Assembly: GCA_022842645.1 (NCBI GenBank)
Contig: JALHPE010000001.1
Coordinates: 329,462 to 393,461 of the forward strand
Direction of reading: 5' to 3'
Length of the DNA stretch: 64,000 bases
From: Minisyncoccota bacterium
GTDB taxonomy: Bacteria; Patescibacteriota; Minisyncoccia; Phycocordibacterales; UBA2100
Shown here in pieces: positions 24,895 through 41,201 of this stretch. A model generated the notes under the pieces. It was not told where the DNA came from. It searched no databases and was given only the letters and a program-made list of their open reading frames with translations. The translations under genes were made by a program, and so were the position numbers. How positions within the stretch are numbered: the stretch's first letter is position 1; each line of letters begins with the position of its first letter.

Positions 24895-24903
24895 TTTTGT
24901 AAT

Positions 24904-24976
24904 CCGCCTATAGCTCAGATGGTAGAGCAGCTCCCTTTTAAGGAGACGGTCCCAGGTTCGATCCCTGGTGGGCGGA
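24904..24976 (+). tRNA. tRNA-Lys (anticodon TTT)
   Basis: Hand-folded cloverleaf: acceptor CCGCCTA/TGGGCGG (one G-U), D-arm GCTC-AGATGGTA-GAGC, anticodon loop CTTTTAA, T-arm CCAGG-TTCGATC-CCTGG, discriminator A. No encoded CCA. Confidence 0.85.
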
Positions 24977-25123
24977 AATGAAAGAAAAATAGGGTCTGCA
25001 CGCTATTTTTCGTTACATTTCCGAGACGGAGGCATGTTTCGCGAGTACGCGAAACAGCCGAGTCGGGGTCGAAGAATTCTTGTCGCGACGGCGACAAGAA
25101 TATCTGTGACGACTGAAGACTGT
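24977..25123 (+). other. conserved tRNA 3'-trailer element (family member 1 of 4)
   Basis: Contains GACGGAGGC, GCCGAGTCGGGGTCG and AATATCTGTGAC motifs shared with the trailers at 29241-29405, 37908-38075 and 39382-39500, plus internal hairpins (TTTCGCG-AGTA-CGCGAAA; TTCTTGTCGC-GACG-GCGACAAGAA). Confidence 0.5.
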
Positions 25124-25462
25124 TTACAGCGGCAAATCAAACGCAAACGGCCCAGGGCCTGTGATGAGGAGTGTGATACTCATTACGAGTGTGAGCCAAA
25201 GGGTACTTTTCGGGGTTGAGCTGCCACGAGCAAGAGATTCGATAAGAGTGAGGATGGCAATGAGTGCCATAGGTTGCGTGAGTGCGCCCACAAAAAGGAA
25301 TAGTGCTGCGAGTCCAGTTACGACGCCGGAGGCGCGCGTCCAGATGTCTTCTTTGCGAAGATTCTCAAGCGCGATCTTGCCGAGTATGACCGCAACTGCA
25401 ATGCGAATGAGAAGGCCCGCGAATGGTGCGAGGTAGAGCAGTTCGGGGAAGTACGAAAGCAT
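25124..25462 (-). CDS. DoxX-like small integral membrane protein
   Basis: Three or four TM helices (LAPFAGLLIRIAVAVILG, GVVTGLAALFLFVGAL, IAILTLIESLA, LTLVMSITLLITG). The start is chosen at MLSYFPELL (25462) to avoid overlap with the convergent trmH-like gene. Confidence 0.45.
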   Translation of the reverse strand: MLSYFPELLYLAPFAGLLIRIAVAVILGKIALENLRKEDIWTRASGVVTGLAALFLFVGALTQPMALIAILTLIESLARGSSTPKSTLWLTLVMSITLLITGPGPFAFDLPL

Positions 25463-25514
25463 GGGGGCAGTGTACCGCCTTGTCTTCGGCGCGACAAGAA
25501 TATAGGGTGCTTCT

Positions 25515-25988
25515 ATGGAGCGATACATTATCTTGCACAACCTTCGTAGTGCCCACAATGTGGGCGCAATTTTCCGCACCGCGGACGCCTCCGCTATTTC
25601 CCATATGTATCTCACCGGCTATACGCCGGCACCGCTTGATAGGTTTAAGCGTCCGCAGGGTGAGATTGCAAAGACGGCGCTTGGCGCAGAAAAAGCAATT
25701 TCTTGGACGAGTGCACGCTCTCTTTCTCGTGTTATGAGAAGTCTTCGTGCAAACGGTGTGCGTATTGTTGGTGTCGAGCAAGATGCACGGGCGCGTGACT
25801 ATCGTCTTTTTAAACCCGAAGGAGCGACAGCATTTCTTTTTGGGAACGAAGTGACGGGACTCGCCCCCTCAATCCGCACATCGTGCGACGATCTTGTGGA
25901 AATTCCCATGCTCGGCATGAAAGAGTCGCTCAATGTTGCAACAACCGCGGGAATTATTTTGTTCTCAACGCTTCCGTTTAATACGTAA
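25515..25988 (+). CDS. SpoU/TrmH-family RNA 2'-O-methyltransferase
   Basis: SPOUT motifs NVGAIFRTADA, GNEVTGL and IPMLGMKESLNVATTAGIILF. Confidence 0.8.
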   Translation: MERYIILHNLRSAHNVGAIFRTADASAISHMYLTGYTPAPLDRFKRPQGEIAKTALGAEKAISWTSARSLSRVMRSLRANGVRIVGVEQDARARDYRLFKPEGATAFLFGNEVTGLAPSIRTSCDDLVEIPMLGMKESLNVATTAGIILFSTLPFNT

Positions 25989-26982
25989 ATACATCAACAG
26001 TGCGACCTTGCGCATCTAAGAGACGGATTACATCGTGCGAGGCTCTCCATATCTCGCCGGGTGCTCCAAGATACAAGCGCCAGACATTGTCGTGAAAATC
26101 GGCACGATAACTTTGTGTGCGCACGCAGCCGTTATACGAAAGTGTGTCGGCTAACTGTGTGCGGCATGTCGCAGTGAGTGTCTGGGGAAGTTCTTGTGGA
26201 AACTGACATGATTGGATTCCTTGGAGTGCGTCAAAGCACTCGGCGCCATAGCGCATAAGATTTTGTTCGGAAAGTGGCATGAGCGAAGAGGGGGAGGGGC
26301 AACGTTCAGCGAGTGGTGGAGTAAATGATTGGAATTGTTGGAGGTATCCGGTGCAGGTGTTTTCTCGGAAGGAGACACCGACGGGTGAAGAACCGCTTGT
26401 GAGAATTGCGACGCCACCGGGCGCGAGTGCCACTGCGCCTAGTGTATTAGGTATTCCTTGCGAGAATGGTGCAGCTGCTCCCGGAATCACAACACGCACT
26501 CCCGTGAGCGCGCTTTCAAGCGACCATCCCTGGATGTTGATGGGGGAGTTATTTCGATATTCGGCTTGCAGTTGCACATACTCAGTGTTTGCATCGGTCG
26601 CGTGAATACCTCCTTCGTCTCGGGCAATAAAGACCGCGCCGACGTAGGTGGAGGGCGTGCCGAAATTGCGCATCTCCGCCGCTTCTCGGTTGAGGCGCTC
26701 GTATTCTTCCGTCAAAGCGAGGAGTTCTGCTTGTGCATTTCCAGGGTCATTTGCATAGGGGTCAGAAATCTGTAAAGCCTTAGTTATGTCGATGGGGACA
26801 AAGAGCTGAGTTGGCTGCCACGGGAGGCGAAAGCCAACGCCTTCGTCTGGAGTGATGGGTTCGAGAAAGTCTATAGACGTAATATCATTAAATACGCTTC
26901 GTGGTCCGCCGCCGATCACCCAGAGCGTTAGTGCGGCGAGCACAATAAAAATCAAAAGCCAAATCACCACCTGTCGGAGCAT
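25978..26982 (-). CDS. membrane-anchored protein with a lamin-tail-domain (LTD)-like region
   Basis: N-terminal TM anchor VIWLLIFIVLAALTLWVI. The EYVQLQAEYRNNSPINIQGWSLESALTGVRVVIPG … DVIRLLDAQGRTVDVFTY segment matches the LTD pattern (E-x-V-E-L-x-N…L-x-G-W-x-L…V-D-x-x-x-Y). Confidence 0.4.
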   Translation of the reverse strand: MLRQVVIWLLIFIVLAALTLWVIGGGPRSVFNDITSIDFLEPITPDEGVGFRLPWQPTQLFVPIDITKALQISDPYANDPGNAQAELLALTEEYERLNREAAEMRNFGTPSTYVGAVFIARDEGGIHATDANTEYVQLQAEYRNNSPINIQGWSLESALTGVRVVIPGAAAPFSQGIPNTLGAVALAPGGVAILTSGSSPVGVSFRENTCTGYLQQFQSFTPPLAERCPSPSSLMPLSEQNLMRYGAECFDALQGIQSCQFPQELPQTLTATCRTQLADTLSYNGCVRTQSYRADFHDNVWRLYLGAPGEIWRASHDVIRLLDAQGRTVDVFTY

Positions 26983-26999
26983 GCCACTAGTATATCCTT

Positions 27000-28244
27000 C
27001 TATGAATGCATCTTCCGCAATTCTTCACGTACCACCTGTGCATCACTCCATGGCATAGCACTTCCGCGCGCGCCTTGTATAGTTGGATCGGTTCCTTTGC
27101 CGGTCACAATAACGCAATCACCTGAGCGCGCGAGAGAAAGTGCGCGTGCAATGGCCGAGCGGCGATCCATGATGATTTCGGGAGTTTTTTTCTCAATACC
27201 GCGTGCGAGTGTATCAATGATGCCGCGCGGATCTTCGTCGTACGGATCCTCGTTGGTGAGGATAATCGTATCGCAATACGTTTCAGCAACGCTTCCCATG
27301 ACAGGACGTTTCCACATATCTCGCCCACCCCCCGTCGAACCAAGTACACAAATTTTTCGTCGCTCAGGATATGCTTCATAGATCGCGCGCAGCGAATCGG
27401 GCGTATGAGCATAATCAACAACAGCAGTAAACGATTGTCCTTCGTCAATCTCTTCGGCACGCCCTGGAATGCGCTTGAGACTTGCAATGCCGCGCGCGAT
27501 TGTGTGCTCTCGAATACCGAATGCACGCGCAAACGTTGCAGCCGCAAGTGCGTTTATAAGTGAAAACGTACCTGGTAGCGCAACACTGATGCGTGTTTCC
27601 CCCAAGGTAAAAAATCCATCATGTTCTCGTGCCTCATACGGCGTGGCACCGAGAAGGGAAAATGGAATCGGGTATTCAATCGGTAGTGAGAGATACCTAC
27701 CGCTTTGTGTGTCATCGGCGTTTGCCACCATGTACCGTGGACGTTTCGATGAGCGCGTGAGTTGTCGGCCAATTTCAAACTTGGCATCAGCGTATGCCTG
27801 AAGCGACCCGTGCGACTCTATGTGTTCGGGGGCAAGATTAATGAATAGAAGTGCGTCGAGTGCGAGGAATCTGTGTCGAAATTGGCGCGCGCCTTCGGAG
27901 GTGAGCTCGATAAATACAATACCGCATCCTGCTCGCACCGCATCAGCAATAAAGTTTTGTACAAAAAAACGCCCCGGAATGGTCATTCTCTTTGTGTTTG
28001 GTTCACTGTCGGTATCTATCTTAAATCTAATACTACTTGAAAGCGCCGTTTTCCAGCCAGCTGTTTCAAAAATAGCATTTAGATATTCAATAGTGGACGA
28101 TTTTCCTTTTGTGCCGGTTACTCCTACGACGACAATATGACGCGAGGGAAACCTACAAAAAAACGCCGCAAGAAATGCAAGTACAAAATGATAGGCAGAG
28201 AGAATCGGTGCAGGAAGTACGGAAGCGACTTTTTTCTTTAACAT
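27000..28244 (-). CDS. Mur ligase family protein (MurE-like middle and C-terminal domains)
   Basis: P-loop VVGVTGTKGKSST, DYAHTPDSL (MurE-type) and a C-terminal ICVLGSTGGGRD Mur-ligase motif. At 414 aa it lacks the usual N-terminal domain. Confidence 0.7.
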   Translation of the reverse strand: MLKKKVASVLPAPILSAYHFVLAFLAAFFCRFPSRHIVVVGVTGTKGKSSTIEYLNAIFETAGWKTALSSSIRFKIDTDSEPNTKRMTIPGRFFVQNFIADAVRAGCGIVFIELTSEGARQFRHRFLALDALLFINLAPEHIESHGSLQAYADAKFEIGRQLTRSSKRPRYMVANADDTQSGRYLSLPIEYPIPFSLLGATPYEAREHDGFFTLGETRISVALPGTFSLINALAAATFARAFGIREHTIARGIASLKRIPGRAEEIDEGQSFTAVVDYAHTPDSLRAIYEAYPERRKICVLGSTGGGRDMWKRPVMGSVAETYCDTIILTNEDPYDEDPRGIIDTLARGIEKKTPEIIMDRRSAIARALSLARSGDCVIVTGKGTDPTIQGARGSAMPWSDAQVVREELRKMHS

Positions 28245-28245
28245 A

Positions 28246-28815
28246 CTAGCGGCCGAGGAGTTTCAGTGCGGCGCGTAAGCGCTCGCTACTTGTTGCAATG
28301 GATGCAGGAACTTTCCGCAGCGTATCGCGCGCTTCGGCGTGCGAGTAACCAAGGGAGCGCATGGCTTCAAGCGCTTCTTCGTCTCCGCGCATGGCACCGT
28401 GCGCCTCTTCGGATCCCGCGCCCACTTTGTCGCGCAGTTCGATCACTATTTTTTCTGCCGTTTTGCGGCCAATTCCGGAAACCTTGGTGAGATACTCCGC
28501 CTCACCCTTTGCAATTGCGGTCCGCAGAGTTTCAGTTGAGGCGATGTCTAGAATGGCGAGTGCTGAGCGGGGGCCGACGCCGGAAACGGTGAGAAGCATC
28601 TCGAAGAATCGAAGTTCTTCCTCAAGGGCGAATCCAAAAAGAGAGAATGCATCTTCGCGTACGTGCGTGTGTATCCAGAGCCCAGCGGACTCTCCTCCCC
28701 GAAGGGAAAGCAAGAGCTGTTTTGTGCATGAGAGCTCATAGCCAACCCCCCCGACAAGGAGGATGAGGTGAGCCGCTCGCGTGCCTTTTACGACGCCTTC
28801 AAGGTAGCCGATCAT
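28246..28815 (-). CDS. ruvA: Holliday junction DNA helicase subunit RuvA
   Basis: MIGYLEGVVK … LFGF … ERELFEML-like LRFFEMLLTVSGVGPRSALAIL helix-hairpin-helix motifs. Confidence 0.9.
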   Translation of the reverse strand: MIGYLEGVVKGTRAAHLILLVGGVGYELSCTKQLLLSLRGGESAGLWIHTHVREDAFSLFGFALEEELRFFEMLLTVSGVGPRSALAILDIASTETLRTAIAKGEAEYLTKVSGIGRKTAEKIVIELRDKVGAGSEEAHGAMRGDEEALEAMRSLGYSHAEARDTLRKVPASIATSSERLRAALKLLGR

Positions 28816-28905
28816 AGGGGAAGTATACCGTATGCCGTATTCGGTATACCGGGGGAATGCCGCAGAAACCCTTGTTTTTTGAGGGGAATAATGTAGTATC
28901 GCCGA

Positions 28906-29145
28906 ATGGCAAAAACAAAGTCTGCTAAGAAAGCATATCGCGTCGAGCTCCGCCGCCGCGTATTTAACGCGCGCCGCGCAAAGGCAATGAAAGACGGCGT
29001 GAAGGCAGTGGTAAAGTCACAGGATGCAAAAGATCTTCCTGCGGCGCAGAAAGCGATTGATAAGGCAGTGAAGCGCGGGCTCATCAAGAAGAACACCGCG
29101 GCCCGCATGAAGTCGCGCCTCGCGAAGAAGGTGGCGGCAAAGTAG
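28906..29145 (+). CDS. rpsT: 30S ribosomal protein S20
   Basis: MAKTKSAKKAYRVELRRRVFNARRAKAMK… is near-consensus S20. Confidence 0.9.
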   Translation: MAKTKSAKKAYRVELRRRVFNARRAKAMKDGVKAVVKSQDAKDLPAAQKAIDKAVKRGLIKKNTAARMKSRLAKKVAAK

Positions 29146-29168
29146 GTTTTCAAGTATTCTGAGCGCAC

Positions 29169-29240
29169 GCTCTCGTCGTTCAACGGATAGGACACATCCT
29201 TGCGGAGGATGTAATGTAGGTTCGATTCCTGCCGAGAGCA
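29169..29240 (+). tRNA. tRNA-Arg (anticodon GCG)
   Basis: Acceptor GCTCTCG/CGAGAGC, D-arm GTTC-AACGGATA-GGAC, anticodon stem CATCC/GGATG with loop TTGCGGA, T-arm GTAGG-TTCGATT-CCTGC, discriminator A. Confidence 0.75.
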
Positions 29241-29405
29241 ATTGAAGCGGAGCAAAATTGCTCCGGAGGACAGTGCCTTCGCACTGTCCGTCAGGAATCG
29301 AAAGGCGGAGCGTTACCGAGCCACTAGGCGAGGTCGCGAGCCGGGGTCGCGAAATTTCTGAGTGACGACGAAGAAATATTTGTGACCGATTCCTGCCGAG
29401 AGCAC
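29241..29405 (+). other. conserved tRNA 3'-trailer element (family member 2 of 4), ending in a direct copy of the tRNA-Arg 3' end
   Basis: Hairpins GGAGCAAAATTGCTCC and GGACAGTGCCTTCGCACTGTCC. CAGGAATCGAA is antisense to the tRNA T-loop TTCGATTCCTG. Motifs GGCGGAGCG, GAGCCGGGGTCGCG and ATATTTGTGAC. The terminal GACCGATTCCTGCCGAGAGCA duplicates tRNA positions 29221-29240. Confidence 0.5.
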
Positions 29406-29467
29406 AAACTATTTTCTTTCCCCACGCTCGCATTGCAGAGAGGGGTAGAAGGTCGCATCATAAGGAC

Positions 29468-31582
29468 ATGTCATTTCCCGCACATTCGCGCGGAGCTTCG
29501 CTCTTTGGAGTTTTGATGTTGGTGGGGATTTTGAGTTCGGTGGCGGTTGGATTGGAATCAAGTTACGCGTCTGTTAATAGCAGTGCACTTTTGGCCCAGG
29601 GAGCTATGGTTAGTCCTCGAGGCGCACCTTCTGGGATTGGCTCATCGCAGTTGAGTAGAGGGTTCGCAACCCTCGAAATGGGGGTGAATAGTGGTGTGTA
29701 TGGCATTAAATATGATAGTGACGCTTTCAAAAATCTTACCTGTGGCGTGGGGAACGATTTCATTGCAAAACTTGATCGGGTTGAAGACCAGAATCCTTCC
29801 GCGATTTATTACTCTGACAGTAAAGGAAATCCAACATCAATAAAAGCACAGTGCGTGTACAGTCCTCGAGGTGGCCAATTTTCCGGGAGGTCAGAGTGGG
29901 GAGCCACCATACCATCTCGATCTTGTGGTGCTAACGGCGCAAATCCATGGAGATGTTACGTAAAAGTCTGTTGGCCGTCGAGTAAGACAGGTGGCGGCGA
30001 AGTGTGTCGTGTCGGCAAAAGTCCACTTGATGTTGGACAGTCCGTATCAGAGGGTGTTGATTCAAATCAGAGAGGTGTTGCGCAGGGGCGCGCCGAGACG
30101 ATACTAAACGATCCGACATTAAATCCTGAAGAAAAAAAAGCCGCGCTCGAAAGCATTAAGACCCCATTAGATCAGGGGCAACAAAATGCATTACTCCAGT
30201 CGTTTCAAGCAGAAAAAAAACAAGTTGAAACTGAATTGATTGCGAGTAAAAAAGAAGAACAAGAACTAAGATCTCTCGCTGAAGGGTGCGATGGTTTCGG
30301 GGTTGTAAGTTGTGATGTTTATACCGAAGGCGCGGATCGCGCAAAGCAGAAAAACGAAGAATTGCAGGAAAAACTTGAAGCACTTTCGCAGGCTGAAAAA
30401 TTTTTCCTTTCTCCAGCTGATTCCCCAAAAGATGTAAATGAAAAGAAAAAGGAGTCGCAACCAGAAGTGCCCCGTAATGAACACGATCAAACTTTCATTA
30501 TTTACCGCGAGCGGCCGAGTGATCCATATAGAGATTTTTTTGGCAAAAACGCAAACCAAGATGAAGATCGGTATTTATGTGAAAGATATAACGACCGCGA
30601 TGCATGCATGCGTATTTCGACTGGAGGTTATGGGAGTGCAGGAGCTCGTGGCGGCTACCCAGGAGGCGGGCAATCATCACGTTGCGGAGGACAGCAGCCG
30701 AATTTTGGGGGCGGACTCGGGGGAATTATCACAGGTGTCATCTCACTATTTAGTAGGAATAATAACAGTGGAGACTGCACCGCTGACGGTGTTCCTAAGC
30801 CACGATGTACACTCACCGCGAGTCCCAAAAATATTTCGAAGCCTGGAGAACAGGTTACGCTCTCGTGGCAATCAGATGATGCTTTTGCCGCAACGCTTTC
30901 GAACCGTGGCAGTGTTGGCGTAAATGGCAGTGAGGTTGTGCAGCCGCAACAAACCACCACCTACATGCTTTCTCTTCAGGGATATAAGAATACGCAAACA
31001 GGTCAGGTGCTCTCGGGGCAATGTTCGACACAGGTGACTGTGGGAGGTACAACAACGCCGACCGGCAACGATCCAAAGGCGCAGATTTCATGTTCGCCAC
31101 AAAGTGCGGATGTTGGTATGTCGGTCGCGGTCTCGTTCTCGTGCCTCAACTCGAACACAAGTTCTGGTTCGGGATTTTCGACTAACAATCAACTGAGTGG
31201 TTCCGCGACGCCGGTGGTGACTGCTCCTACGATTGGTTCGAACTCGGTGACCTATGGAGTGACGTGCTCAAAAGAAGGCAAGACCGACAGCGCGCAGTGT
31301 ACAGTTGAGGTGAACAAAACTTCGATAGTACTCGTGGCAAATCCGAAGAATGTTGAGAGGCGCGAAGAATCAAACATTGGTTGGGTGACGGCCGGCATGC
31401 AATCGTGCACCATCTCATCACCACAGCTCTCCGACTTTACGAACAATAATACTGGAAATACCAGCACTTCAGGCGTTGTGCGCACGCCGCCACTCACTAA
31501 TGATGCGACATTCGTACTCACCTGTACCTCACGCTCGGGTGCGACAAAGACGGCCGAAACGAAAGTGGAAGTAGAAAACTAG
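29468..31582 (+). CDS. large secreted/surface protein (704 aa) with a coiled-coil segment and a Thr/Ser-rich beta-rich C-terminal half
   Basis: Signal peptide MSFPAHSRGASLFGVLMLVGILSSVAVG. An internal charged coiled-coil (…KKEEQELRSLAEG…KQKNEELQEKLEALSQAEK…). The C-terminal ~250 aa carry repeated …SCS…TVTV… beta-strand-like segments. Confidence 0.5.
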   Translation: MSFPAHSRGASLFGVLMLVGILSSVAVGLESSYASVNSSALLAQGAMVSPRGAPSGIGSSQLSRGFATLEMGVNSGVYGIKYDSDAFKNLTCGVGNDFIAKLDRVEDQNPSAIYYSDSKGNPTSIKAQCVYSPRGGQFSGRSEWGATIPSRSCGANGANPWRCYVKVCWPSSKTGGGEVCRVGKSPLDVGQSVSEGVDSNQRGVAQGRAETILNDPTLNPEEKKAALESIKTPLDQGQQNALLQSFQAEKKQVETELIASKKEEQELRSLAEGCDGFGVVSCDVYTEGADRAKQKNEELQEKLEALSQAEKFFLSPADSPKDVNEKKKESQPEVPRNEHDQTFIIYRERPSDPYRDFFGKNANQDEDRYLCERYNDRDACMRISTGGYGSAGARGGYPGGGQSSRCGGQQPNFGGGLGGIITGVISLFSRNNNSGDCTADGVPKPRCTLTASPKNISKPGEQVTLSWQSDDAFAATLSNRGSVGVNGSEVVQPQQTTTYMLSLQGYKNTQTGQVLSGQCSTQVTVGGTTTPTGNDPKAQISCSPQSADVGMSVAVSFSCLNSNTSSGSGFSTNNQLSGSATPVVTAPTIGSNSVTYGVTCSKEGKTDSAQCTVEVNKTSIVLVANPKNVERREESNIGWVTAGMQSCTISSPQLSDFTNNNTGNTSTSGVVRTPPLTNDATFVLTCTSRSGATKTAETKVEVEN

Positions 31583-31585
31583 TCG

Positions 31586-32179
31586 CTAAAAACCAAAGAT
31601 CTCAAGTATCTTATGTGCAAGTGGTTCCTGCATCGGCACTTCTTCCACGCGTTCGCGTAAGTAGGCGCGCACTTCGTCGGGATTAGTGTCGCCGAGCGGA
31701 ATGACAAGATTGGGCGCCATGAATGCGATGGTGTCGATGAGGAGGGTGGGTTCACCAACTTCGGTTTCAACCCAGAACGAAATAATATTCTCAAAGGGGT
31801 GAAGTGTGGGGCCGGTGCGAATGCCGCGCTCGGATATTTCAAATTCGTGAAGCTCCGGTGGGTGTTGCGCGATGAGGGCAATAGTCACTGCGGCGATGAT
31901 AATGACGAGTGCAAAGAGCACGTTGGAAAAAAGAATGCTTGTGAGTGCGGCGCAGACGGCAATAATGCCGAGCGCCCAAAACCAATCCGAGCCGCGCTCG
32001 ATGTGCTCGTGTTCAAATGCAGACCAACGCAAAGAAACCTGTGAGGCTTCAGAAAAAGGCGACCTGCGTTGTTGCGGAGCCTCTGCGTCATCTTCATCGT
32101 ATGCCCGATACGCCTCAGACGACGCTTTCTCCGCGCCTAGCATCTCATCCTTTTTCTGAAGCCTCACACCATCCGACAT
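31586..32179 (-). CDS. hypothetical membrane protein (acidic N-terminus, two TM helices)
   Basis: TM helices WFWALGIIAVCAALTSILFSNVLFALVIIIAAVTIALIA. No known motif. Confidence 0.4.
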   Translation of the reverse strand: MSDGVRLQKKDEMLGAEKASSEAYRAYDEDDAEAPQQRRSPFSEASQVSLRWSAFEHEHIERGSDWFWALGIIAVCAALTSILFSNVLFALVIIIAAVTIALIAQHPPELHEFEISERGIRTGPTLHPFENIISFWVETEVGEPTLLIDTIAFMAPNLVIPLGDTNPDEVRAYLRERVEEVPMQEPLAHKILEIFGF

Positions 32180-32237
32180 GGTGCTATTTTACTATGCTTT
32201 GCATGCACGAATCGGTGCAATGTGGTACAACAACCTC

Positions 32238-32322
32238 GGAAGGGTGGCTGAGAGGTCTAAAGCATCGCACTTGAAATGCGACGTGGGGCAACCCACCGTG
32301 GGTTCGAATCCCACCCCTTCCG
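32238..32322 (+). tRNA. tRNA-Ser (anticodon TGA), long variable arm
   Basis: Acceptor GGAAGGG/CCCTTCC, anticodon stem TCGCA/TGCGA with loop CTTGAAA, variable arm GTGGGGCAACCCACC, T-arm GTGGG-TTCGAAT-CCCAC, discriminator G. Confidence 0.85.
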
Positions 32323-32378
32323 CAAAGCGAACAGGATCACTTTTAAATCAAGTCTTCTTTTGTAATGTCCCCAAGTAG

Positions 32379-33002
32379 TTAGCGGAGTTCGAACCATCCA
32401 GACAATCCACTAACATTTGTGCAGAGAAGCGAGTATGTTGCACCACTCGGTACAATGAAAGAGCCTGTCATATTTGTGTTGCTACTGTAACCACTCGCTA
32501 TGCGTACATCCACACCATTGATTCTTGCAAGAATACCAGTTCCATGTCCGTTTACACTTATCGCTACTTGGATTGGTTTGCCGGTATTGTTTGTGTAATT
32601 TGTACCGCAAGTGTGCACCCCTGGTCGGCCAGGAGACAAATCAGACCAATTTTGATTTTCGCCAAGACCTGCGCTCGTTGTAACCGGCGGCGTCCAAGTA
32701 CCGTTATCATTCTTTATTTCTATGACGCCAGCGTTGTCGCGAACGCCGTAGCCCGCCGCTCCTGTCGTAGTCCCGAAATTTAAATAGCGGGATGCTCCGG
32801 ACAAAATGGTATTTCCAAACACCGCTAAAGCATTCACCCCAACCCCACCGTTTTTAACCTGATCAACCGATCCCACATTGAGTGGGGATGAGACGTTGTT
32901 ATTTGGGGGCGCGCCAGTCGGGCCGACCCACGCTATTGCAGTAATGGAGGCAAAAATCGTTCCAAGTATTCCGCCTATGAAGGCAAACATGAACGAGCGC
33001 AT
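32379..33002 (-). CDS. secreted/anchored hypothetical protein (Gly/Asn/Thr-rich)
   Basis: N-terminal hydrophobic segment FAFIGGILGTIFASITAIAWV followed by a G/N/T-rich beta-type sequence. Confidence 0.45.
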   Translation of the reverse strand: MRSFMFAFIGGILGTIFASITAIAWVGPTGAPPNNNVSSPLNVGSVDQVKNGGVGVNALAVFGNTILSGASRYLNFGTTTGAAGYGVRDNAGVIEIKNDNGTWTPPVTTSAGLGENQNWSDLSPGRPGVHTCGTNYTNNTGKPIQVAISVNGHGTGILARINGVDVRIASGYSSNTNMTGSFIVPSGATYSLLCTNVSGLSGWFELR

Positions 33003-33134
33003 ATCTTAGTATAAGTGGTTTTATGTATTGCTGACGCGGGTTTGGGGATACCGTAGGATGATGTACGGTATGCATACGCGCTTTATGTATCGTTGACTGC
33101 CGCTAACAGCTCTTCCAATCTACGTAGAACACTT

Positions 33135-33563
33135 ATGATTAAAATAATGATTTTCGGCACATTCGACATGATTCATAAGGGTCATGAGGATATGTTTCGG
33201 CAGGCGCGCTCTCTTGCGGACGAGTCACGCTTAATCGTTTCGGTTGCGCGAGATTCTGCCGCGAAGCGCCATCGTGGATTCGCACCACAGAATGTTGAGG
33301 AGAAACGGCGAGCCGCACTTGCAGCGCATCCGCTTGTTGATGAGGCGATTCTGGGTGACGAAGAAGGATATATTGCACACATCACTGCGGCGCAGCCAGA
33401 CATTATTGCGCTTGGGTACGATCAAGGTGGAGAATACGTTGAACGTTTAGAAGAAGAGCTAAAGGAAGCAGGTCTTACTCCCACGATTGTCCGTCTCAAG
33501 CCATTTCAGCCGGAGATTTATAAAACATCAAAGCTGCGAGACTCTGGTACACTCCCCTCATGA
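33135..33563 (+). CDS. cytidylyltransferase-fold nucleotidyltransferase, RibL-like (archaeal-type FAD synthetase / FMN adenylyltransferase-like)
   Basis: [12 protein letters not shown] (HxGH nucleotidyltransferase motif), then VSVARD and a [10 protein letters not shown] pattern closely resembling RibL. The upstream in-frame ATG at 33093 is also possible. Confidence 0.6.
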
Positions 33564-33946
33564 GATATTTAGGAATTGATTATGGCGCGAAGCGCATAGG
33601 GCTTGCGATCTCAGATCCTGCTGCGCAGTTTGCGTTTCCGCACGAAACCATTCCGAACGACACAACCACACTCGATCGAATCCGACAGGTGATAAAGCGG
33701 GAAGAAATAGGAGGAATTATTATTGGCGATGCGCGCGCCTCGAATGGCGAAGTAAATCCTATTACACAAGAGGTTGAAACATTCACCGACTCACTCAAGG
33801 CGCTTCATGTGCCAGTTCATTCCGTTTCTGAGGCATGGAGTTCAGTTGAAGCAGCTCGTTTTGCGCCCAAAGGTAGTGAGCATAACGACGCCTCTGCTGC
33901 TGCTATCATTTTGCAGAGGTTTCTTGATGCACAGGTGGGCGGTTGA
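33560..33946 (+). CDS. ruvX: putative pre-16S rRNA nuclease / Holliday-junction-resolvase-like protein YqgF (RuvX)
   Basis: [19 protein letters not shown]…IGGIIIGDA…[16 protein letters not shown] is the RNase H-fold YqgF pattern. Confidence 0.8.
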
Positions 33947-33975
33947 TGGCGGCAGAATGCTGTTAGGATATACAT

Positions 33976-34869
33976 ATGAGCAACAGTCTCTCTCGTGTTT
34001 TTCTATACGTACTTCTTGTTTTCATGTGTATTCCTTTTCTCGTAGCCGCAGAGGGTGGTAGCGGTCAGTGTGATAGTCAGTACAACAGTTGCCTCAAGGC
34101 AAAGCGCTCAGGTTGTGAACAGCAGTGGCAATCGTGTATGTCGAAATGCAATGTTGGTGGTGGGGCGGTTGGTTCTTGCAATAAGGATCCCGAGTGTCAG
34201 CTCCATTGTACTGAATCTGCAACGTCACAGGGCGGGCGCATTAGCTGTTGCGAAGGTGGGCCGAAACATCAGAACTCATGTCCCAATAAAGTAGATGGTA
34301 ATTGCGAGCCGAAGAAAACAGAAGGTGGAGAAGGAGGAAAGCCACCTGAATTTCCCAAGCCGCCACAAGGTGGCGGTGGGGGAGGGGGAAGCCCTGCGGC
34401 AACTAGTACAGCGGAATGTGATGAGACGGCAACAACAACAAAAAATATGCCGTGTGTAAGAAGTACCAGTGGAGTCAGTGGTTATTTTAATAATATCTTT
34501 TCTACCGACAAAGGTAGCGTCACGGAAAATGTACAATCAACACTTTCTTCAGCCGCTGATAAGCTCTCATCGTTTTTGTTTGGTACGGACTCGGGCACAA
34601 AGGAGACTTCCGGCAGGGGTGCGGAAACTCCCGCGAACACAAACAATCCTGTCGTTCCGACGGGGGGCACACAGCTTACTCCGCAGGTGGTACAAGCAAC
34701 ACCGATTGGATCTAGGACGGACACAGGAGCGCCCTCTGCGGCGGTCACTGGTTTTGGAAATCAAAACACGCCCTCCACCGAACAATCAGGTGTCATGAAG
34801 GCGATTGGAGAAACTCTTAGCGGCATTGGGGTGACGCTCCGCAATCTTCTCTCTTCGTTCGCTTTCTGA
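33976..34869 (+). CDS. secreted Cys-rich / poly-Gly / Thr-Ser-rich protein (paralogue of 23592..24830)
   Basis: Signal peptide MSNSLSRVFLYVLLVFMCIPFLVAA, a Cys-rich module (CDSQYNSCLKAKRSGCEQQWQSCMSKCN…CQLHC…CCEGG…C), a GGGGGGGS run, and a T/S/G-rich tail. Confidence 0.5.
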   Translation: MSNSLSRVFLYVLLVFMCIPFLVAAEGGSGQCDSQYNSCLKAKRSGCEQQWQSCMSKCNVGGGAVGSCNKDPECQLHCTESATSQGGRISCCEGGPKHQNSCPNKVDGNCEPKKTEGGEGGKPPEFPKPPQGGGGGGGSPAATSTAECDETATTTKNMPCVRSTSGVSGYFNNIFSTDKGSVTENVQSTLSSAADKLSSFLFGTDSGTKETSGRGAETPANTNNPVVPTGGTQLTPQVVQATPIGSRTDTGAPSAAVTGFGNQNTPSTEQSGVMKAIGETLSGIGVTLRNLLSSFAF

Positions 34870-34881
34870 TAGAGTCGGGAG

Positions 34882-35214
34882 ATGGACACCATAACCTACG
34901 ACGATTTTGCGAAGCTTGATATTCGTATTGGGACGGTGCGTGCAGCAGAGCGTGTGCCAGAAACAGATAAGCTCATAAAGTGTACGATCGATTTTGGTGA
35001 ACTCGGCGAGCGCACGATTGTTTCTGGCATTGCGCTGTTTCGAAACCCCGAGGATCTTATTGGGAAGCAGTTGCCGTATATCGTGAATCTTGAGCCGCGA
35101 CTACTCAAGGGCATTGAAAGTCAAGGCATGTTACTCGCTGCTTCACCTGGAGGTGAAGGTCTCGCCCTTTTGCTTCCTGATACAGAGGTACCAAACGGTA
35201 CTCGCCTCAAGTAA
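34882..35214 (+). CDS. stand-alone tRNA-binding domain protein (CsaA/Trbp111-like, OB fold)
   Basis: …FAKLDIRIGTVRAAERVPETDKLIKCTIDFGE…RTIVSGI… matches the tRNA-binding domain found at the MetRS/PheT C-terminus and in CsaA. Confidence 0.75.
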   Translation: MDTITYDDFAKLDIRIGTVRAAERVPETDKLIKCTIDFGELGERTIVSGIALFRNPEDLIGKQLPYIVNLEPRLLKGIESQGMLLAASPGGEGLALLLPDTEVPNGTRLK

Positions 35215-35264
35215 TTTTGCTTTTTGTACGTTAGACCCTATACGAAATACGGTATACTTGCGGT

Positions 35265-36347
35265 ATGCAGTTCTCGCGCATGCTCGCGCGGTGGTTTCCC
35301 GTACCGCACATGATCGCACCACATGCGGCTGGTATTGATATTACTGACACCTCTATTAAATGGCTCTTATTTTCTGAAAGTCGCGAAGGTCTTCGTGTTG
35401 TCTCGTGGGGATCTGAACCCCTTACAGCAGGCATCGTTGAACGCGGTGCGGTTAAGGACACTGCGGCACTCGGAACAGCTCTTCGTACTCTCAGAAAAAA
35501 ACACGGTATACGCGCAGCACACGCTGCGCTTCCCGAAGAGGATGCCTACATCTTTAGTATGCACGTGCCCGCGCGAAGTACGCGCCATGAGATTATGAGC
35601 ATGGTTGAGTTTGAGCTTGAAGCACGCGTGCCCATTCCTGTTGCGCAGACCGTGTATGACTTTGATACGGTGTTTGCCCGAGATGACAGTGGGGAGGAAA
35701 TTGCCGTCTCTGCGTTTCCGCTCGATCTTGCAAATGGGTATGCACAAGCGTTTGAAATCTCAGGAATTGAGCTACTCTCGCTTGAGCTTGAGGCGCGTTC
35801 TGTAGGACGAGCAACATCCGCTCGTGGGCACGATGCAACAACACTCCTTGTTGATTGTGGGTATGCACGTACGGGGGTCGCTATCCTCAGAAATGGTATC
35901 CCGCTTTTTACTTCTACACTTGATATCGGCGGGCTCCATTTGAGTAAAGCGGTTATGGAAGCCCTTTCTATTTCAGAAGAAGAAGCGCGCACATTTAAGA
36001 ACGAACATGGGATCGTCGGTGCGCCCGATGATAAGGCGCGACTTGCGCTTGAGCGTGCGGCGCACGATCTCGCGAATGAAATCGTAAAACACTATCGTTT
36101 TTGGGATACGCGCAAAGACGAGCATGGCGGGCAGTCCGCTCCGGTGGAGCGAGTGCATCTACTTGGGGGGAGTGCCAACCTCAAAGGATTTCCCGAATAC
36201 ATTGCGAGTATGGTGCACGTGCCTACGGAGCGTCCGAATGTGTGGAAAAATACGTTTTCATTTGATGATGTTATTCCACCTATTGATCGACGCGCATCGC
36301 TGCAGTATGCAACTGCAATCGGCCTCGCGCTCCGGTCTGTCTCATAG
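35265..36347 (+). CDS. pilM: type IV pilus assembly protein PilM (actin-like ATPase fold)
   Basis: GIDITDTSIKWLLF N-terminal phosphate-1-like motif and a C-terminal LLGGSANLKGFPEYI. Followed by two single-TM genes in PilN/PilO positions. Confidence 0.65.
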   Translation: MQFSRMLARWFPVPHMIAPHAAGIDITDTSIKWLLFSESREGLRVVSWGSEPLTAGIVERGAVKDTAALGTALRTLRKKHGIRAAHAALPEEDAYIFSMHVPARSTRHEIMSMVEFELEARVPIPVAQTVYDFDTVFARDDSGEEIAVSAFPLDLANGYAQAFEISGIELLSLELEARSVGRATSARGHDATTLLVDCGYARTGVAILRNGIPLFTSTLDIGGLHLSKAVMEALSISEEEARTFKNEHGIVGAPDDKARLALERAAHDLANEIVKHYRFWDTRKDEHGGQSAPVERVHLLGGSANLKGFPEYIASMVHVPTERPNVWKNTFSFDDVIPPIDRRASLQYATAIGLALRSVS

Positions 36348-36349
36348 GT

Positions 36350-36853
36350 ATGGCAAACGTACTTCCCATCGCTCGCACCACTCTCGTACGTCGTATGCGT
36401 GCACGCCTCCTCATCGTCGTGAGTCTCACTCTTTCGGCAGCTGCCCTCATTGCAATACTTGCTCTCCTTCCTGCATTTATTTCAATCTCAATTGCGCGCG
36501 CCGGACTTGTGTCCGAAGCCCCTGCTGAAGCTTCCCTGGAGCAGGGAGAGGCTGCACGCACGCTCGCGCTTATTCAAACACTCAATACATTTGTTGGCAC
36601 AACATCACCTTCAGTGAAGCTCCTTGAGGCTCTTACACTTCGTCCGCAGGGTGTCTCGATAAGTTCTGTGCGCTATACAGCGGGTGCTCCGGCCTCTCTT
36701 GTGCTCTCTGGGGCCTCCGCGAGACGCGAGGGTGTGAGCGGCTATCGAGATGTACTGCTTTCCGACGGTCGTTTTGGCAAGGTTTCTGTGCCAGTTGCGG
36801 CTTTGGTGGGGACACAAGAGGGGCGTTTTTCCATAACACTTTCGGGTATCTAA
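36350..36853 (+). CDS. PilN-like protein (N-terminal TM, periplasmic domain)
   Basis: Single TM LLIVVSLTLSAAALIAILALLPAFISISI immediately after pilM. Call is by position and topology only. Confidence 0.4.
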   Translation: MANVLPIARTTLVRRMRARLLIVVSLTLSAAALIAILALLPAFISISIARAGLVSEAPAEASLEQGEAARTLALIQTLNTFVGTTSPSVKLLEALTLRPQGVSISSVRYTAGAPASLVLSGASARREGVSGYRDVLLSDGRFGKVSVPVAALVGTQEGRFSITLSGI

Positions 36854-36854
36854 T

Positions 36855-37376
36855 ATGCGCACTACATTACTATCAATCGCATCGCTTCTACTCGCGGTTA
36901 CACTGTGGGGTGCGTTTGGATATTTATTTTTCATACTTCCGCGCGAGCGTGCGCAGTATGCTGAGGCCCTGGCTACGAGCGCGCAGGAGGCAGTGCGCAC
37001 AGAGTCTTCTGCGCGCGTAAAGGCGATTATTCAGGATACCGAAATTGAACGCGCGGCACTGGTTTCGCTTCTTCAGGTTCCACTCATTGATGCTATTAAG
37101 ATTGTTGAAGACGCCGCGCGTGCGGGTGGTGCTCGCACCGTTGCGATAGGAGAAGCAACGCCGCTGTCAACTAAAAACCCATCACCAGTCGCGCCGGCCA
37201 CGACACGCGTCGCGGTCGTGGTGCAAGCGGAAGGAACATTTGCCGCGCTCGTGCGCGTTGTGTCGCTCTTTGAGGTTCTAACAATTCCTTCGACGTTAGA
37301 TAGTTTTGACCTTGAGGAAACCGAAAAGGGATGGCGCCTCACCGCACGCCTCACGATTGCCGTTGCGCAGATATAG
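36855..37376 (+). CDS. PilO-like protein (N-terminal TM, periplasmic domain)
   Basis: Single TM LLSIASLLLAVTLWGAFGYLFFIL. 2-nt gap after the PilN-like gene. Call is by position and topology only. Confidence 0.35.
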   Translation: MRTTLLSIASLLLAVTLWGAFGYLFFILPRERAQYAEALATSAQEAVRTESSARVKAIIQDTEIERAALVSLLQVPLIDAIKIVEDAARAGGARTVAIGEATPLSTKNPSPVAPATTRVAVVVQAEGTFAALVRVVSLFEVLTIPSTLDSFDLEETEKGWRLTARLTIAVAQI

Positions 37377-37381
37377 TACGT

Positions 37382-37696
37382 ATGCAATTCAATACAAAAC
37401 TACCAATGCGTTTACGAGATGCCTATGCCTCGCGACACGAGCCAGAGGCGCAGCGTGTGATTGCGCGTGCGACGTGGGCGCTGTGCGCAGTTATCTTTTT
37501 TATCGCGCTTGTTGCGAGTGTCGTGTATGGTGCATGGGAATTTACCCGCATTCCACGGGGCAGTGATGAGGGCACAGTTCGCGCGCAAACTGGATTTACG
37601 CGTGCTCAGATCGAGACATTACTCAACACGTTTGATGTGCGCGCCGAACAGTTTGAGGCGCGTTTACGCACACCGCCGGCACAGGATCCGTCGTGA
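37382..37696 (+). CDS. small hypothetical membrane protein
   Basis: TM WALCAVIFFIALVASVVYGAW. ATG at 37382 begins MQFNTKLPMRL. Confidence 0.3.
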   Translation: MQFNTKLPMRLRDAYASRHEPEAQRVIARATWALCAVIFFIALVASVVYGAWEFTRIPRGSDEGTVRAQTGFTRAQIETLLNTFDVRAEQFEARLRTPPAQDPS

Positions 37697-37740
37697 GCCA
37701 ACTTGTAGCCCCTAGCGTGTAGCTGGTAGGATAACTCTGA

Positions 37741-37812
37741 CCCCTTGTAGCTCAATGGACAGAGCAGCGGACTTCTAAGCCGTTGATGTTGGTTCGATTC
37801 CAGCCGAGGGGA
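37741..37812 (+). tRNA. tRNA-Arg (anticodon TCT)
   Basis: Acceptor CCCCTTG/CGAGGGG, D-arm GCTC-AATGGACA-GAGC, anticodon loop CTTCTAA (imperfect anticodon stem GCGGA/GCCGT), T-arm GTTGG-TTCGATT-CCAGC, discriminator A. Confidence 0.7.
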
Positions 37813-37834
37813 ATTAAGGGTATAGTAGCCCTGC

Positions 37835-37907
37835 GGGCGATTAGCTCAGTTGGTAGAGCAATCCGTTTACACCGGAAAGGTCACAGGTTCGAGTCCTGTA
37901 TCGCCCA
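37835..37907 (+). tRNA. tRNA-Val (anticodon TAC)
   Basis: Acceptor GGGCGAT/ATCGCCC, D-arm GCTC-AGTTGGTA-GAGC, anticodon loop TTTACAC, T-arm ACAGG-TTCGAGT-CCTGT, discriminator A. 22 nt after tRNA-Arg(TCT). Confidence 0.85.
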
Positions 37908-38075
37908 CAAAATCAATGAGCGCAATCCGCAGGATTGCGCGACTATGATTTTGTAGGAGCGATACAGGACTCGAAAGACGGAGGCGGGGAACCCGTCAGA
38001 AGACGGGTCGCCGAGTCGGGGTCGTGAAATTGTGCGAGCGACTGGTGAGCAAAATATCTGTGACCGAGCCCACTG
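37908..38075 (+). other. conserved tRNA 3'-trailer element (family member 3 of 4)
   Basis: Hairpin GCGCAATCC-GCA-GGATTGCGC. GCGATACAGGACTCGAA is exactly antisense to the tRNA-Val 3' T-arm/acceptor TTCGAGTCCTGTATCGC. Motifs GACGGAGGCGGGG, hairpin ACCCGTC-AGAAG-ACGGGT, GCCGAGTCGGGGTCG and AATATCTGTGACCGAGCCCAC. Confidence 0.5.
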
Positions 38076-38142
38076 TTTGATCGTGAGAGGAATATGTGAA
38101 AAGTACTTTGACCTCTGGCGCTTTCTCCGTTAGCGTAGTGGG

Positions 38143-38823
38143 ATGTCTGAAAAATCAGTGCAGTGCATCGGCGTCATTCTCGACGGGAATCGCCGGTGGG
38201 CTAAGGCAAAAGGGCTCCCCACGCTTGAAGGCCATCGGCGCGGATTTGAGAATTTAAAATCGTGCGCGCGGTGGGTGCGCGACCGAAATATTCCGCATCT
38301 CGTTGTGTTTGCGTTTTCAACTGAAAATTGGAATCGTTCAGAAGAGGAAGTTGCGTATTTGATGGATATTTTTCGCACCGCAATTCACGATAGCGCAGAA
38401 GAGTTAGGGAGAGAAAACATTCGCATCCGATTTATCGGGCAGCGCGAGCGCTTCGTTGAAGATATTAAAGAGGAGATGCGGGACGCAGAAGAGAAAACGA
38501 GCACGAACACCGGCATGACGCTCTGGATGTGCCTTTCATATGGCGCGCGTGCGGAGATTGTGGCGGCCGCAGAAACGCTCCGAGCTTCGAATACTCTAAT
38601 TTCTGAAGAGACACTCCGCTCGCATTTTTGGAGCGCTGAGATGCCCGACCCTGACATCATCATTCGCACCGGCGGCGCACAGCGTCTCTCCAACTTCCTC
38701 CTCTGGCAGGCGGCGTATAGCGAGCTTTTCTTTCTTGAGCCTCACTGGCCGGATTTCGATGAGAAACTGCTCGATAGCGTACTCTTCGAATACGCGGAGC
38801 GAGAGCGGCGGATGGGCAAATAG
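38143..38823 (+). CDS. uppS: undecaprenyl-diphosphate synthase (cis-prenyltransferase)
   Basis: GVILDGNRRWAKAKGLP, HLVVFAFSTENWNR, and C-terminal RTGGAQRLSNFLLWQAAYSELFF motifs. Confidence 0.9.
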   Translation: MSEKSVQCIGVILDGNRRWAKAKGLPTLEGHRRGFENLKSCARWVRDRNIPHLVVFAFSTENWNRSEEEVAYLMDIFRTAIHDSAEELGRENIRIRFIGQRERFVEDIKEEMRDAEEKTSTNTGMTLWMCLSYGARAEIVAAAETLRASNTLISEETLRSHFWSAEMPDPDIIIRTGGAQRLSNFLLWQAAYSELFFLEPHWPDFDEKLLDSVLFEYAERERRMGK

Positions 38824-38869
38824 TCCATAGGTTGCCTCTCATTTTCAGCTGTGGTACAGTGCCGCAACT

Positions 38870-39283: not shown

Positions 39284-39297
39284 TATTATCCCTGTGC

Positions 39298-39500: not shown

Positions 39501-39504
39501 ACCA

Positions 39505-41191: not shown

Positions 41192-41201
41192 TCGTTTTGT
41201 T

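Follow-up and report, generated by a model that had tools for sequence, protein, structure and literature searches.

We find that a 164-nt insert behind an intact tRNA-Arg(GCG) gene is one copy of R1, an uncatalogued, CPR-wide (Patescibacteria) family of small protein-less elements. With moderate confidence, we read R1 as a small non-coding insertion element that is aimed at tRNA 3′ ends and leaves behind a duplication derived from its target. The insert lies in a 64-kb stretch of bacterial DNA, analyzed here as a whole and referred to as the window, which has 50.5% G+C and seven tRNA genes, four of which (Lys, Arg(GCG), Val, and Leu) carry R1.

A direct repeat of a tRNA 3′ end

The tRNA-Arg(GCG) gene stands immediately 3′ of the gene for ribosomal protein S20, and the insert that follows it (29241–29404) contains no ORF. 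The locus is made up of the following parts:

29169–29240, plus strand: tRNA-Arg(GCG) without an encoded CCA, host gene of the insert (ARAGORN; Rfam tRNA, 57.9 bits)
29223–29240, plus strand: D1, the proximal 18-nt repeat copy, from T-loop C56 to discriminator A73 (repeat search)
29241–29267, plus strand: spacer and first hairpin (29248–29265) (fold; stretch missing from the empty site L126)
29268–29289, plus strand: H0 hairpin, GGACAGTGC-CTTC-GCACTGTCC (fold; comparison of copies)
29289–29302, plus strand: X′, CGTCAGGAATCGAA, a reverse-complement copy covering the tRNA T-loop and the 3′ strand of the T-stem (repeat search)
29303–29386, plus strand: R1 core (covariance-model match 29297–29389, 84.2 bits, E 2e-20; covariation)
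29304–29306 with 29340–29342, plus strand: helix Pa of the core, enclosing an asymmetric loop and P2
29310–29337, plus strand: hairpin P2 of the core (covariation)
29346–29386, plus strand: hairpin P3 of the core, containing the invariant G·U and ending in UGUGAC (covariation)
29387–29404, plus strand: D2, the tail, the distal 18-nt repeat copy (repeat search)

The direct repeat, CGATTCCTGCCGAGAGCA, is exact over 18 nt and occurs twice, at 29223–29240 and 29387–29404, with a start-to-start distance of 164 nt; when the three preceding bases are included (GTT for D1, GAC for D2), the two copies match at 19 of 21 positions. A preliminary description of this DNA had reported a 19/20-nt duplicate of the tRNA 3′ end at a spacing of 165 nt. 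The duplicate is real, its length count was close to, if not the same as, the values given here, and its spacing is corrected by one nucleotide. That the similarity arose by chance, or that the region was misassembled, has a negligible probability: within 400 nt, ~1e-6 exact 18-mer repeats are expected, and the same architecture is found in dozens of genomes. The Arg region is moreover identical across four independent contigs from different sequencing runs and is therefore no assembly artefact.

Between the two repeat copies lies the segment that the same description had recognized as antisense to the T-loop, and this identification holds: X′ (29289–29302) is complementary to 29221–29234 at 13 of 14 positions and to D2 at 11 of 12, and it terminates at the complement of T54. 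It has two near-equivalent pairings, one with the tRNA 3′ half and one with the tail. The 3′ arm of the first hairpin, AATTGCTCCGG, is imperfectly complementary to the acceptor 3′ strand and the first spacer bases, and in the core, Pa and P3 are joined by a GGG linker.

Four copies in the window

The DNA after tRNA-Lys, -Arg(GCG), -Val, and -Leu shares the motifs AGRCGGAG, CGAGYCGGGGTYG, and AUNUGUGAC, and GAGYCGGGGTYG occurs four times on the plus strand, each time 3′ of a tRNA, against 0.93 occurrences expected. Within the window, the R1 covariance model has exactly four matches, in agreement with the family motifs noted earlier. Besides the Arg copy, these are:

25018–25113, plus strand: R1 copy of tRNA-Lys(UUU) (24903–24977); covariance model, 74.6 bits
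37970–38067, plus strand: R1 copy of tRNA-Val(UAC) (37835–37908); covariance model, 65 bits
39392–39502, plus strand: degenerate R1 copy of tRNA-Leu(GAG) (39298–39382); covariance model, 27.6 bits, E 1e-5

The Lys copy contains an inverted repeat of the tRNA end plus trailer (25007–25023 against 24973–24989). At the Val copy, the inverted repeat is perfect (17/17; 37888–37904 against 37959–37975), and the tail, CGAGCCCAC, reads CGAG plus CCCAC and corresponds to a tRNA 3′ end from which 10 internal nt are deleted. The Val trailer had been described as a degenerate version of the Arg duplication, which is right for the internally deleted tail but not for the inverted copy. The Leu copy lies 3′ of a terminator-like palindrome whose arms reach into the tRNA (39365–39402 against 39403–39441), with zero bases between the arms at 39379–39402 and 39403–39426.

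Two other readings of such trailers draw on these copies. At Arg, Val, and Lys, no terminator separates the tRNA from the core, and the downstream genes are on the same strand, which favors a host cis-acting RNA, with the trailer transcribed together with the tRNA and serving as a conserved module for processing, punctuation, or switching. The X′:tail helix would then imitate the acceptor/T-stem minihelix for RNase P, RNase Z, or RNase III, separating tRNA, element, and downstream mRNA; X′ would pair with either the tRNA 3′ half or the tail, as a decoy; and filled and empty sites would result from deletion between the repeats. The tRNA-Arg plus its trailer folds far better than shuffled sequences (z −7.3), and this, along with the two near-equivalent pairings of X′, also speaks for a host RNA. 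Weighing these points against the comparisons below, we consider a host function unlikely, though it is the foremost rival of the insertion reading. The Leu palindrome is a fold-back of the DNA type, as would suit a single-stranded DNA hairpin element (resembling a PATE, a REPIN, or an IS200/IS605 derivative, or having rolling-hairpin ends) mobilized in trans by an HUH-type or other nuclease from another part of the genome, in which the helices would be DNA hairpins and RNA would be irrelevant. This is a variant of the mobile reading.

Filled and empty sites in related genomes

Orthologous loci were reached through homologues of S20. In L126, whose S20 is 91% identical, the order is RuvA, S20, tRNA-Arg, and a gene of 702 aa, as in the window, where this last gene encodes 704 aa. 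The L126 tRNA-Arg, which differs by one substitution, has a single 3′ end and is followed directly by CAAAAGACAGTTTCTTTCCCCAC, which is homologous to the window sequence 3′ of the tail (CAAAC..TTTCTTTCCCCAC). Alignment of L126 with the window leaves one clean 164-nt gap between homologous flanks, and on this alignment we take L126 to be an empty site at the same tRNA-Arg, the kind of locus for which the preliminary description had proposed to look.

Six other related lineages are without R1 at the Arg site. What is found at this site differs among relatives: L127–L130, L212/213, and L216 have a 0.4–0.8-kb insert with a minus-strand ORF, L214/215 have an inverted tRNA, and in L076 another tRNA adjoins. 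The closest relatives, L124 and L125 (S20 96% identical), were left out because both contigs end inside the tRNA. Since none of the other relatives has R1 at the Arg site, a gain in the window lineage is the parsimonious reading, and L126 and the six lineages together support the earlier proposal of an insertion behind the tRNA.

A second site, tRNA-Val upstream of uppS, is filled in L143 and L140, with a perfect 19-nt repeat followed by TTGAAACC, and empty in L136, L137, L149, L151, and L156, where the tRNA is followed directly by TTGAAACC or TGAAACC. These comparisons show the site to be polymorphic, filled or empty, among close relatives. The direction of each single polymorphism is ambiguous, as deletion between the 18-nt repeats can also yield an empty site. 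That most related genomes are without the element at the same tRNA weighs against a host RNA.

Distribution of R1

A pattern scan of one genome per species yielded 119 loci; those in actinobacteria, proteobacteria, and comparable groups are chance matches. Twenty-seven matches lie 40–180 nt 3′ of a tRNA on the same strand, and these come from Saccharibacteria, Paceibacterota, Nomura-, Kaiser-, Zambryskii-, and Taylorbacteria. We built the R1 covariance model from an alignment of 29 cores, using RNAalifold. The model has 62 matches, all in CPR loci, and none among the actinobacterial and proteobacterial chance loci. For a viral source, 50 IMG/VR stretches fit the core pattern, and 0 of the 50 fit the covariance model.

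Most copies (44 of 62) lie 3′ of an ARAGORN tRNA on the same strand, representing at least 12 amino-acid identities, and R1 is also found after tmRNA, which has a tRNA-like 3′ end (L119, L074). The recurrence of trailer elements suspected from the window alone therefore extends to many different tRNAs and to tmRNA. A few copies stand behind a protein gene or near 5S rRNA; the position behind a protein gene is conserved in two genomes (L040, L083), a point in favor of a host RNA. Tandem copies occur in L026, L074, L076, L022, and L058, the next copy starting in or after the preceding tail, and such arrays of diverged cores argue against a host function. Many copies lie 3′ of a terminator-like hairpin, so transcription of the core is not assured; this position, and the presence of many copies per genome with no protein encoded, would be in keeping with a single-stranded DNA element.

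R1 has no counterpart in the collections that we searched. With Rfam 15, only tRNAs in the window score above the gathering threshold, and at E values up to 10 the best non-tRNA matches in 29100–29500 reach 12.9–19.5 bits against thresholds of 50–69. This comparison took in hammerhead, hairpin, twister, pistol, hatchet, and HDV-like ribozymes, group I and II introns, T-box, and Y RNA-like families. No description of the R1 element was found in the searchable full-text literature, in which the nearest topics are the group I introns in tRNA anticodon loops of Patescibacteria, which are unrelated, and TIGR-Tas.

A conserved fold on the tRNA strand

R1 folds into a Y-shaped three-way junction, the closing helix of which is made by the flanks. 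The first arm is built from a 3-bp helix, an asymmetric purine loop, and the variable hairpin P2; the second is the hairpin P3, with UGUGAC at the end of its 3′ strand, precisely where it joins the tail. The conserved core measures 70–110 nt across the family and 84 nt at Arg. From the 29-core alignment, RNAalifold predicts 21 pairs, and compensatory changes are seen in 12 of these. In the 55-sequence model alignment, 96.7% of cells are paired, compared with 36–49% when the partner is slid, and compensatory (double-change) cells number 214, compared with 10–32 in the slid controls; the covariation score was reached by 0 of 500 shuffles. All four Watson-Crick combinations occur between the R of AGRC and the Y of GAGYC, and one core pair is G·U in 54 of 54 distinct sequences. 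These results show that the core is a conserved single-strand structure, and the G·U pairs identify the strand on which it is read as that of the tRNA. By eye, GAAA, UGUGAC, GUC, and GA motifs had suggested hammerhead, hairpin-ribozyme, and k-turn readings, which we rejected because the bases concerned are paired or variable.

Strong covariation and a strand-specific invariant G·U would both fit a host RNA, as would the Lys copies of the window and L076 (S20 57% identical), which share the same junction and have compensatory differences in all three helices. Retention of the Lys copy in these two genomes looks like long selection on an RNA useful to the host, and we count it against the insertion reading.

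The same fold bears on the single-stranded DNA reading. A three-way junction closed by an inverted repeat resembles the hairpin ends used by HUH enzymes, and the structure is strand-specific, as that reading would have it, but an invariant G·T in 54 of 54 sequences, with further frequent G·T, is unusual for DNA hairpins, and R1 is always oriented as the RNA gene upstream of it. Transposition of the IS200/IS605 type leaves the target unduplicated, whereas the duplication at R1 runs from 18 to at least 55 nt. Nor is an enzyme of this kind seen in the window, where the 30 largest ORFs include no TnpA or RAYT. Taken together, we find a single-stranded DNA hairpin element improbable.

The flanking layout is shared by a second, unrelated core. 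In L174, L177, L059, L162, L021, L075, and L058, the order H0, X′, core, and tail recurs behind other tRNAs with a different core: TCGAA comes first, then a long hairpin, GUAC, and a second hairpin whose UGUAA loop is invariant, and the tail follows; at permissive Rfam thresholds, three of these loci returned tRNAs only. Because two cores have it in common, the layout belongs to a shared process or constraint rather than to a single RNA, and the occurrence of a second core between the same flanks is a further argument against a host RNA.

Origin of the direct copy

We compared near-identical units behind different tRNAs. The units of L015 (Nomurabacteria, tRNA-Lys-CUU) and L058 (tRNA-Arg-UCU) are 143 nt long and 93.7% identical, spacer included, and their tRNAs are 66% identical; each unit is then followed by its own tRNA's C56-to-end. 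The same subfamily stands behind two further tRNAs (L109 and the tRNA-Trp of L019). Because each of these near-identical units is flanked by the 3′ end of the tRNA behind which it lies, the comparison shows that the element does not bring the direct copy with it and that this copy originates in the local target. That units so alike occur behind different tRNAs in different genomes also counts against a host RNA. The left border of the repeat is fixed and the right border varies, giving lengths of 18 nt (window Arg), 19 nt (L143, L046), 29 nt (L019), and at least 55 nt (L162, terminator included).

These observations bear on the preliminary description's comparison of the repeat with the classic scar of site-specific integration into a tRNA gene. 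The textbook picture of attL/attR is a direct repeat that reaches from the T-loop to the 3′ end of the tRNA, and both a repeat running from inside the tRNA to its 3′ end and empty sites are found at R1 loci. A scar of a tyrosine or serine integrase, subsequently deleted to ~150 nt, with D1 borne by the element and D2 the displaced original, is nonetheless very improbable. Pfam searches of the 30 largest ORFs of the window revealed no integrase or recombinase, transposase, or reverse transcriptase; these ORFs encode DnaA, DnaN, PolA, RuvB, RecA, a Pif1-like helicase, type-IV-pilus/competence-like proteins, and several aminoacyl-tRNA synthetases. What lies between the repeats is a family with conserved structure, not random leftovers. 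In the Lys/Arg unit, the proximal copy matches each host tRNA and is not supplied by the element, whereas an attP copy would have produced chimeric tRNAs. Variation of the border, with repeats of up to at least 55 nt, together with the tandem copies, tmRNA sites, and matched tails, rules out an attP-borne copy and argues for repeated insertion.

Two flanks copied from the tRNA

In all four window copies and most others, the parts follow in the order D1 plus trailer, apex or hairpin, X′, core, and D2. Twenty-four copies, which we call type A, have an X′ that ends at the T54 complement (..NTCGAA) and a D2 with C56 as its first base. In the 20 copies of type B, X′ extends over no more than the last 5–11 nt of the tRNA, plus trailer, and CAC... 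opens D2; in those inspected by eye, D2 starts two bases inside the X′-complementary region. A hairpin with a CUGC- or CUUC-type loop occupies the place of H0 in many copies of both R1 and the second core family, and X′ is often split by H0 (CUGC-type loop) at the boundary between acceptor and T-stem, an example being 29268–29289 at Arg.

G·U positions in the tRNA stems distinguish between the two strands as templates. At these positions, X′ carries the Watson-Crick partner of the 3′ base in 15 cases and the tRNA's own 5′ base in 0, which shows Watson-Crick templating of X′ on the 3′ strand and makes X′ no copy of the tRNA 5′ strand; the same test led us to reject a degenerate tandem copy of the tRNA, in which X′ would repeat the 5′ strands of the tRNA itself. 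A host RNA that mimics the tRNA would here have exchanged its G·U pairs, including the G3·U70 of tRNA-Ala, for Watson-Crick pairs, which is a point against such a function.

Where the tail differs from the tRNA, X′ agrees with the tRNA at 10 positions, with the tail at 0, and with neither at 2. Private differences from the tRNA are found at 18 positions in X′ only and at 10 in the tail only, and with these counts we discarded the idea that the antisense segment is the better conserved of the two. We likewise discarded two insertion modes in which a long antisense segment would go with a short tail, as the correlation is absent (rho 0.07). Only the inner 5–9 bp beside the core are general among the outer-helix pairs. 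The long outer helix is a historical copy and not a maintained pairing, as follows from the drift of both X′ and the tail, with X′ never following the tail. The co-adaptation to the target suggested earlier is thus not borne out, both segments being decaying copies of the tRNA 3′ strand without mutual compensation, and an outer pairing that is left unmaintained while the tail decays or is internally deleted counts against a host RNA.

A proposed model of insertion

For R1 as an insertion element, we propose that the anti-T-loop end of X′ (..NNTCGAA) would pair with the T-loop of a tRNA-like gene or transcript and that the 3′ end of the core (..UGUGAC) would be joined to C56. Synthesis from the freed T55 end would rebuild the tRNA 3′ end up to a variable point, producing the direct repeat and keeping the tRNA intact, and turn-around (fold-back) copying at a hairpin could generate the inverted copy X′. 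By an equivalent route, the intermediate might be a hairpin or a circle, composed of tRNA end–apex–X′–core, that recombines with a tRNA end; the genomic layout is that of a terminally redundant copy of such a circle. The extreme tRNA 3′ end, instead of the T-loop, may be the recognition target. After insertion, both tRNA-derived flanks would decay while the core is conserved. Candidate catalysts are a host repair or recombination enzyme, a trans-encoded nuclease, and the RNA itself. We count against this insertion reading that the long perfect X′ (17–21 nt) is accounted for by no demonstrated step. Also against it are the terminator-like hairpins ahead of many copies and the outcome of the Pfam search, which revealed no transposase, integrase, or reverse transcriptase among the 30 largest window ORFs.

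A more radical form of the model, which we regard as quite unlikely, would make R1 and the second core a protein-independent mobile RNA (or single-stranded) element, with a catalytic Y-core attacking the T-loop at 55/56 and capturing the tRNA 3′ end. Its hairpin or circle, viroid-like with a DNA stage, would re-enter tRNA genes by recombination, as a CPR-specific tRNA-parasitic replicon. The hints of such a ribozyme or circle are the invariant G·U beside the 3′ junction and the terminally redundant layout.

Genomes of CPR/Patescibacteria are tiny, yet more than half of the tRNA genes in 64 kb carry a structured passenger of 120–170 nt, which recurs in Saccharibacteria and many Parcubacteria lineages, behind tRNAs and tmRNA. 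If mobile, R1 would be a compact element that finds its target through base pairs with the universally conserved T-loop and spares an essential gene, and it would account for part of the assembly breaks and annotation noise at CPR tRNA genes. If a host module, it would point to a new tRNA/tmRNA 3′-processing step or to operon punctuation, in organisms with reduced RNase sets. With a core of ~85 nt, base-exact junctions, and filled and empty alleles that coexist in public metagenomes, R1 is a compact subject for either possibility.

Comparison with known systems

Retrozymes, viroid-like circular RNAs, and Y- or T-shaped rolling-hairpin ends are, like R1, small, non-coding, and rod-plus-branched, and the genomic copy of R1 resembles a more-than-unit-length copy of a circle, as in retrozyme/viroid-type systems. 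R1 differs from these in being chromosomal and tRNA-linked, and it has neither an Rfam ribozyme motif nor an IMG/VR match to its covariance model.

Group I introns occur in tRNA genes of Patescibacteria, in the anticodon loop (PMC13011429). These introns, along with the terminator-targeting group II introns, share with R1 a structured RNA that mostly is without a homing-endonuclease gene, an association with CPR tRNA loci, and a guide-like segment complementary to flanking host RNA. R1, by contrast, stands behind a complete tRNA and needs no splicing, is far smaller (core 84 nt), matches no Rfam intron model, and has its complementarity to the sequence 3′ of the junction.

The X′:tail helix of R1 reproduces the stack of acceptor and T-stem, as do mascRNA of MALAT1, plant mitochondrial t-elements, and engineered tRNA scaffolds. 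Its geometry is compatible with such a role, and the helix could recruit RNase P, RNase Z, or the CCA enzyme. Unlike these tRNA-like handles, it is a perfect Watson-Crick copy without T-loop or identity elements, left to decay.

MITEs, REPINs (mobilized by RAYT), and IS200/IS605 PATEs are likewise small, protein-less, multicopy, and hairpin-dependent, and lie between genes at gene 3′ ends. In place of shared terminal inverted repeats and a fixed short duplication, as in MITEs, R1 has inverted repeats that are copies of the neighboring tRNA, different at each locus and not specific to the element, and a long variable duplication. It has hairpins together with a target duplication, which argues against the IS200/IS605 family, as well as a strand-specific multi-helix fold with an invariant G·U, and targets at tRNA and tmRNA 3′ ends.

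Integrative elements that target tRNAs share with R1 the T-loop-to-3′-end repeat, the intact tRNA, and the polymorphic site. R1 differs from them in its insert of ~150 nt, for which no adjacent recombinase was seen among the 30 largest window ORFs, and in a repeat that is copied from the target with variable length, and its loci contain, beyond their pattern, a target copy in inverted orientation and a structured core that is conserved.

R1 behind tmRNA genes and in tandem

We found that R1, the family of small, protein-less structured elements that stand behind tRNA genes, also follows tmRNA genes, either as one copy or in tandem. In these tmRNA-linked copies the antisense segment matches the tRNA-like 3' end of the tmRNA. 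Loci from other genomes carry L-numbers, with coordinates counted within each locus.

R1 behind tmRNA
L119:3948-4493, R1 behind tmRNA
L074, minus strand, tmRNA 1567-1967, R1 at 1382-1483 and 1213-1309

We also observed duplication of the whole R1 unit in tandem behind tRNA-Asp (L017:3039-3463), where two identical copies, separated by an N run, lie 329 nt apart and each is followed by a repeat of the tRNA-Asp 3' end (from the T-loop base C56 to the end) and of its trailer.

Across the alignment, the apical hairpins P2 and P3 of the R1 core often have, in many copies, A/U-rich stems capped by CAGCAG, CACCAG or CAGUAG loops, and an alternative form carries an extension, GAGCGACGGCGAG, in which GA stands on either side of a short G-C helix. 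These apical loops and the extension may be protein-binding modules.

A second core family with R1-type flanks

Flanks of the R1 type also surround a second core family, unrelated to R1, in the order hairpin H0, antisense segment ending in TCGAA, core, and the tRNA 3' end repeated in direct orientation. Its core consists of a long covarying hairpin, GUAC and a 5-bp hairpin whose UGUAA loop is invariant; three loci searched against Rfam 15 matched no family.

Loci of the second core family
L174, minus strand, 3' of tRNA-Val
L177, 1335-1500
L162, 2196-2400
L059, behind tRNA-Ser-ACU
L021, behind tRNA-Leu-GAG
L075, behind tRNA-Arg-CCG
L058, two copies in tandem, after an R1 copy

R1 copies away from upstream tRNAs

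At L053:6262-6643, an R1 copy is found just 5' of a group I intron that scores 58 bits in Rfam, and at L069:404-582 an R1 copy lies immediately 5' of a tRNA; neither copy has a tRNA upstream, and the closing helix uses distant flanking bases. Elsewhere R1 adjoins the 3' end of 5S rRNA on the opposite strand (L030:3268-3892 and L071:3590-3967), with two copies back-to-back in L030. In one Nomurabacteria and one Paceibacterota genome, an R1 copy sits immediately behind the stop codon of a zinc-finger-like protein gene, the same gene in both (L040 and L083, 214-308 as oriented), a position conserved without linkage to a tRNA.

tRNA genes and inserts in the window and its relatives

The window genes for tRNA-Lys, Arg(GCG), Arg(UCU), Val and Leu (24903-41276) visibly lack an encoded CCA. 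The arginine anticodon is GCG rather than the usual ACG, and tRNA-Arg(UCU) and tRNA-Val, 22 nt apart, share the single R1 copy behind Val. A 1150-aa class I synthetase of the isoleucyl/valyl type (49257-52709) carries a histidine-phosphatase domain (His_Phos_1, residues 502-671) as an insertion within its catalytic domain. Because a TraG-like P-loop ATPase lies within a few kb of dnaA-dnaN (4167-6149 and 10688-13353), the window probably adjoins the replication origin; all four window R1 copies match the strand of dnaA/dnaN.

The two contigs of the closest relative (L124 and L125; ribosomal protein S20 96% identical) both break off at the same base within tRNA-Arg(GCG), which suggests a repeat-induced assembly break. 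Several relatives (L213, L212, L216, L127, L128 and L130) carry a 0.4-0.8-kb insert on the 3' side of this same tRNA, making its end a hot spot for differing inserts.

Inserts behind tRNA-Arg(GCG)
L213:1795-2535, minus strand
L127:3160-3537

The protein encoded by the insert is 246 aa long. It has an HTH at its N-terminus, which gives weak Pfam matches to the HTH domains of transposases, and a motif resembling LAGLIDADG (LYWAEGKK) was spotted by eye. This protein may be a free-standing homing endonuclease.
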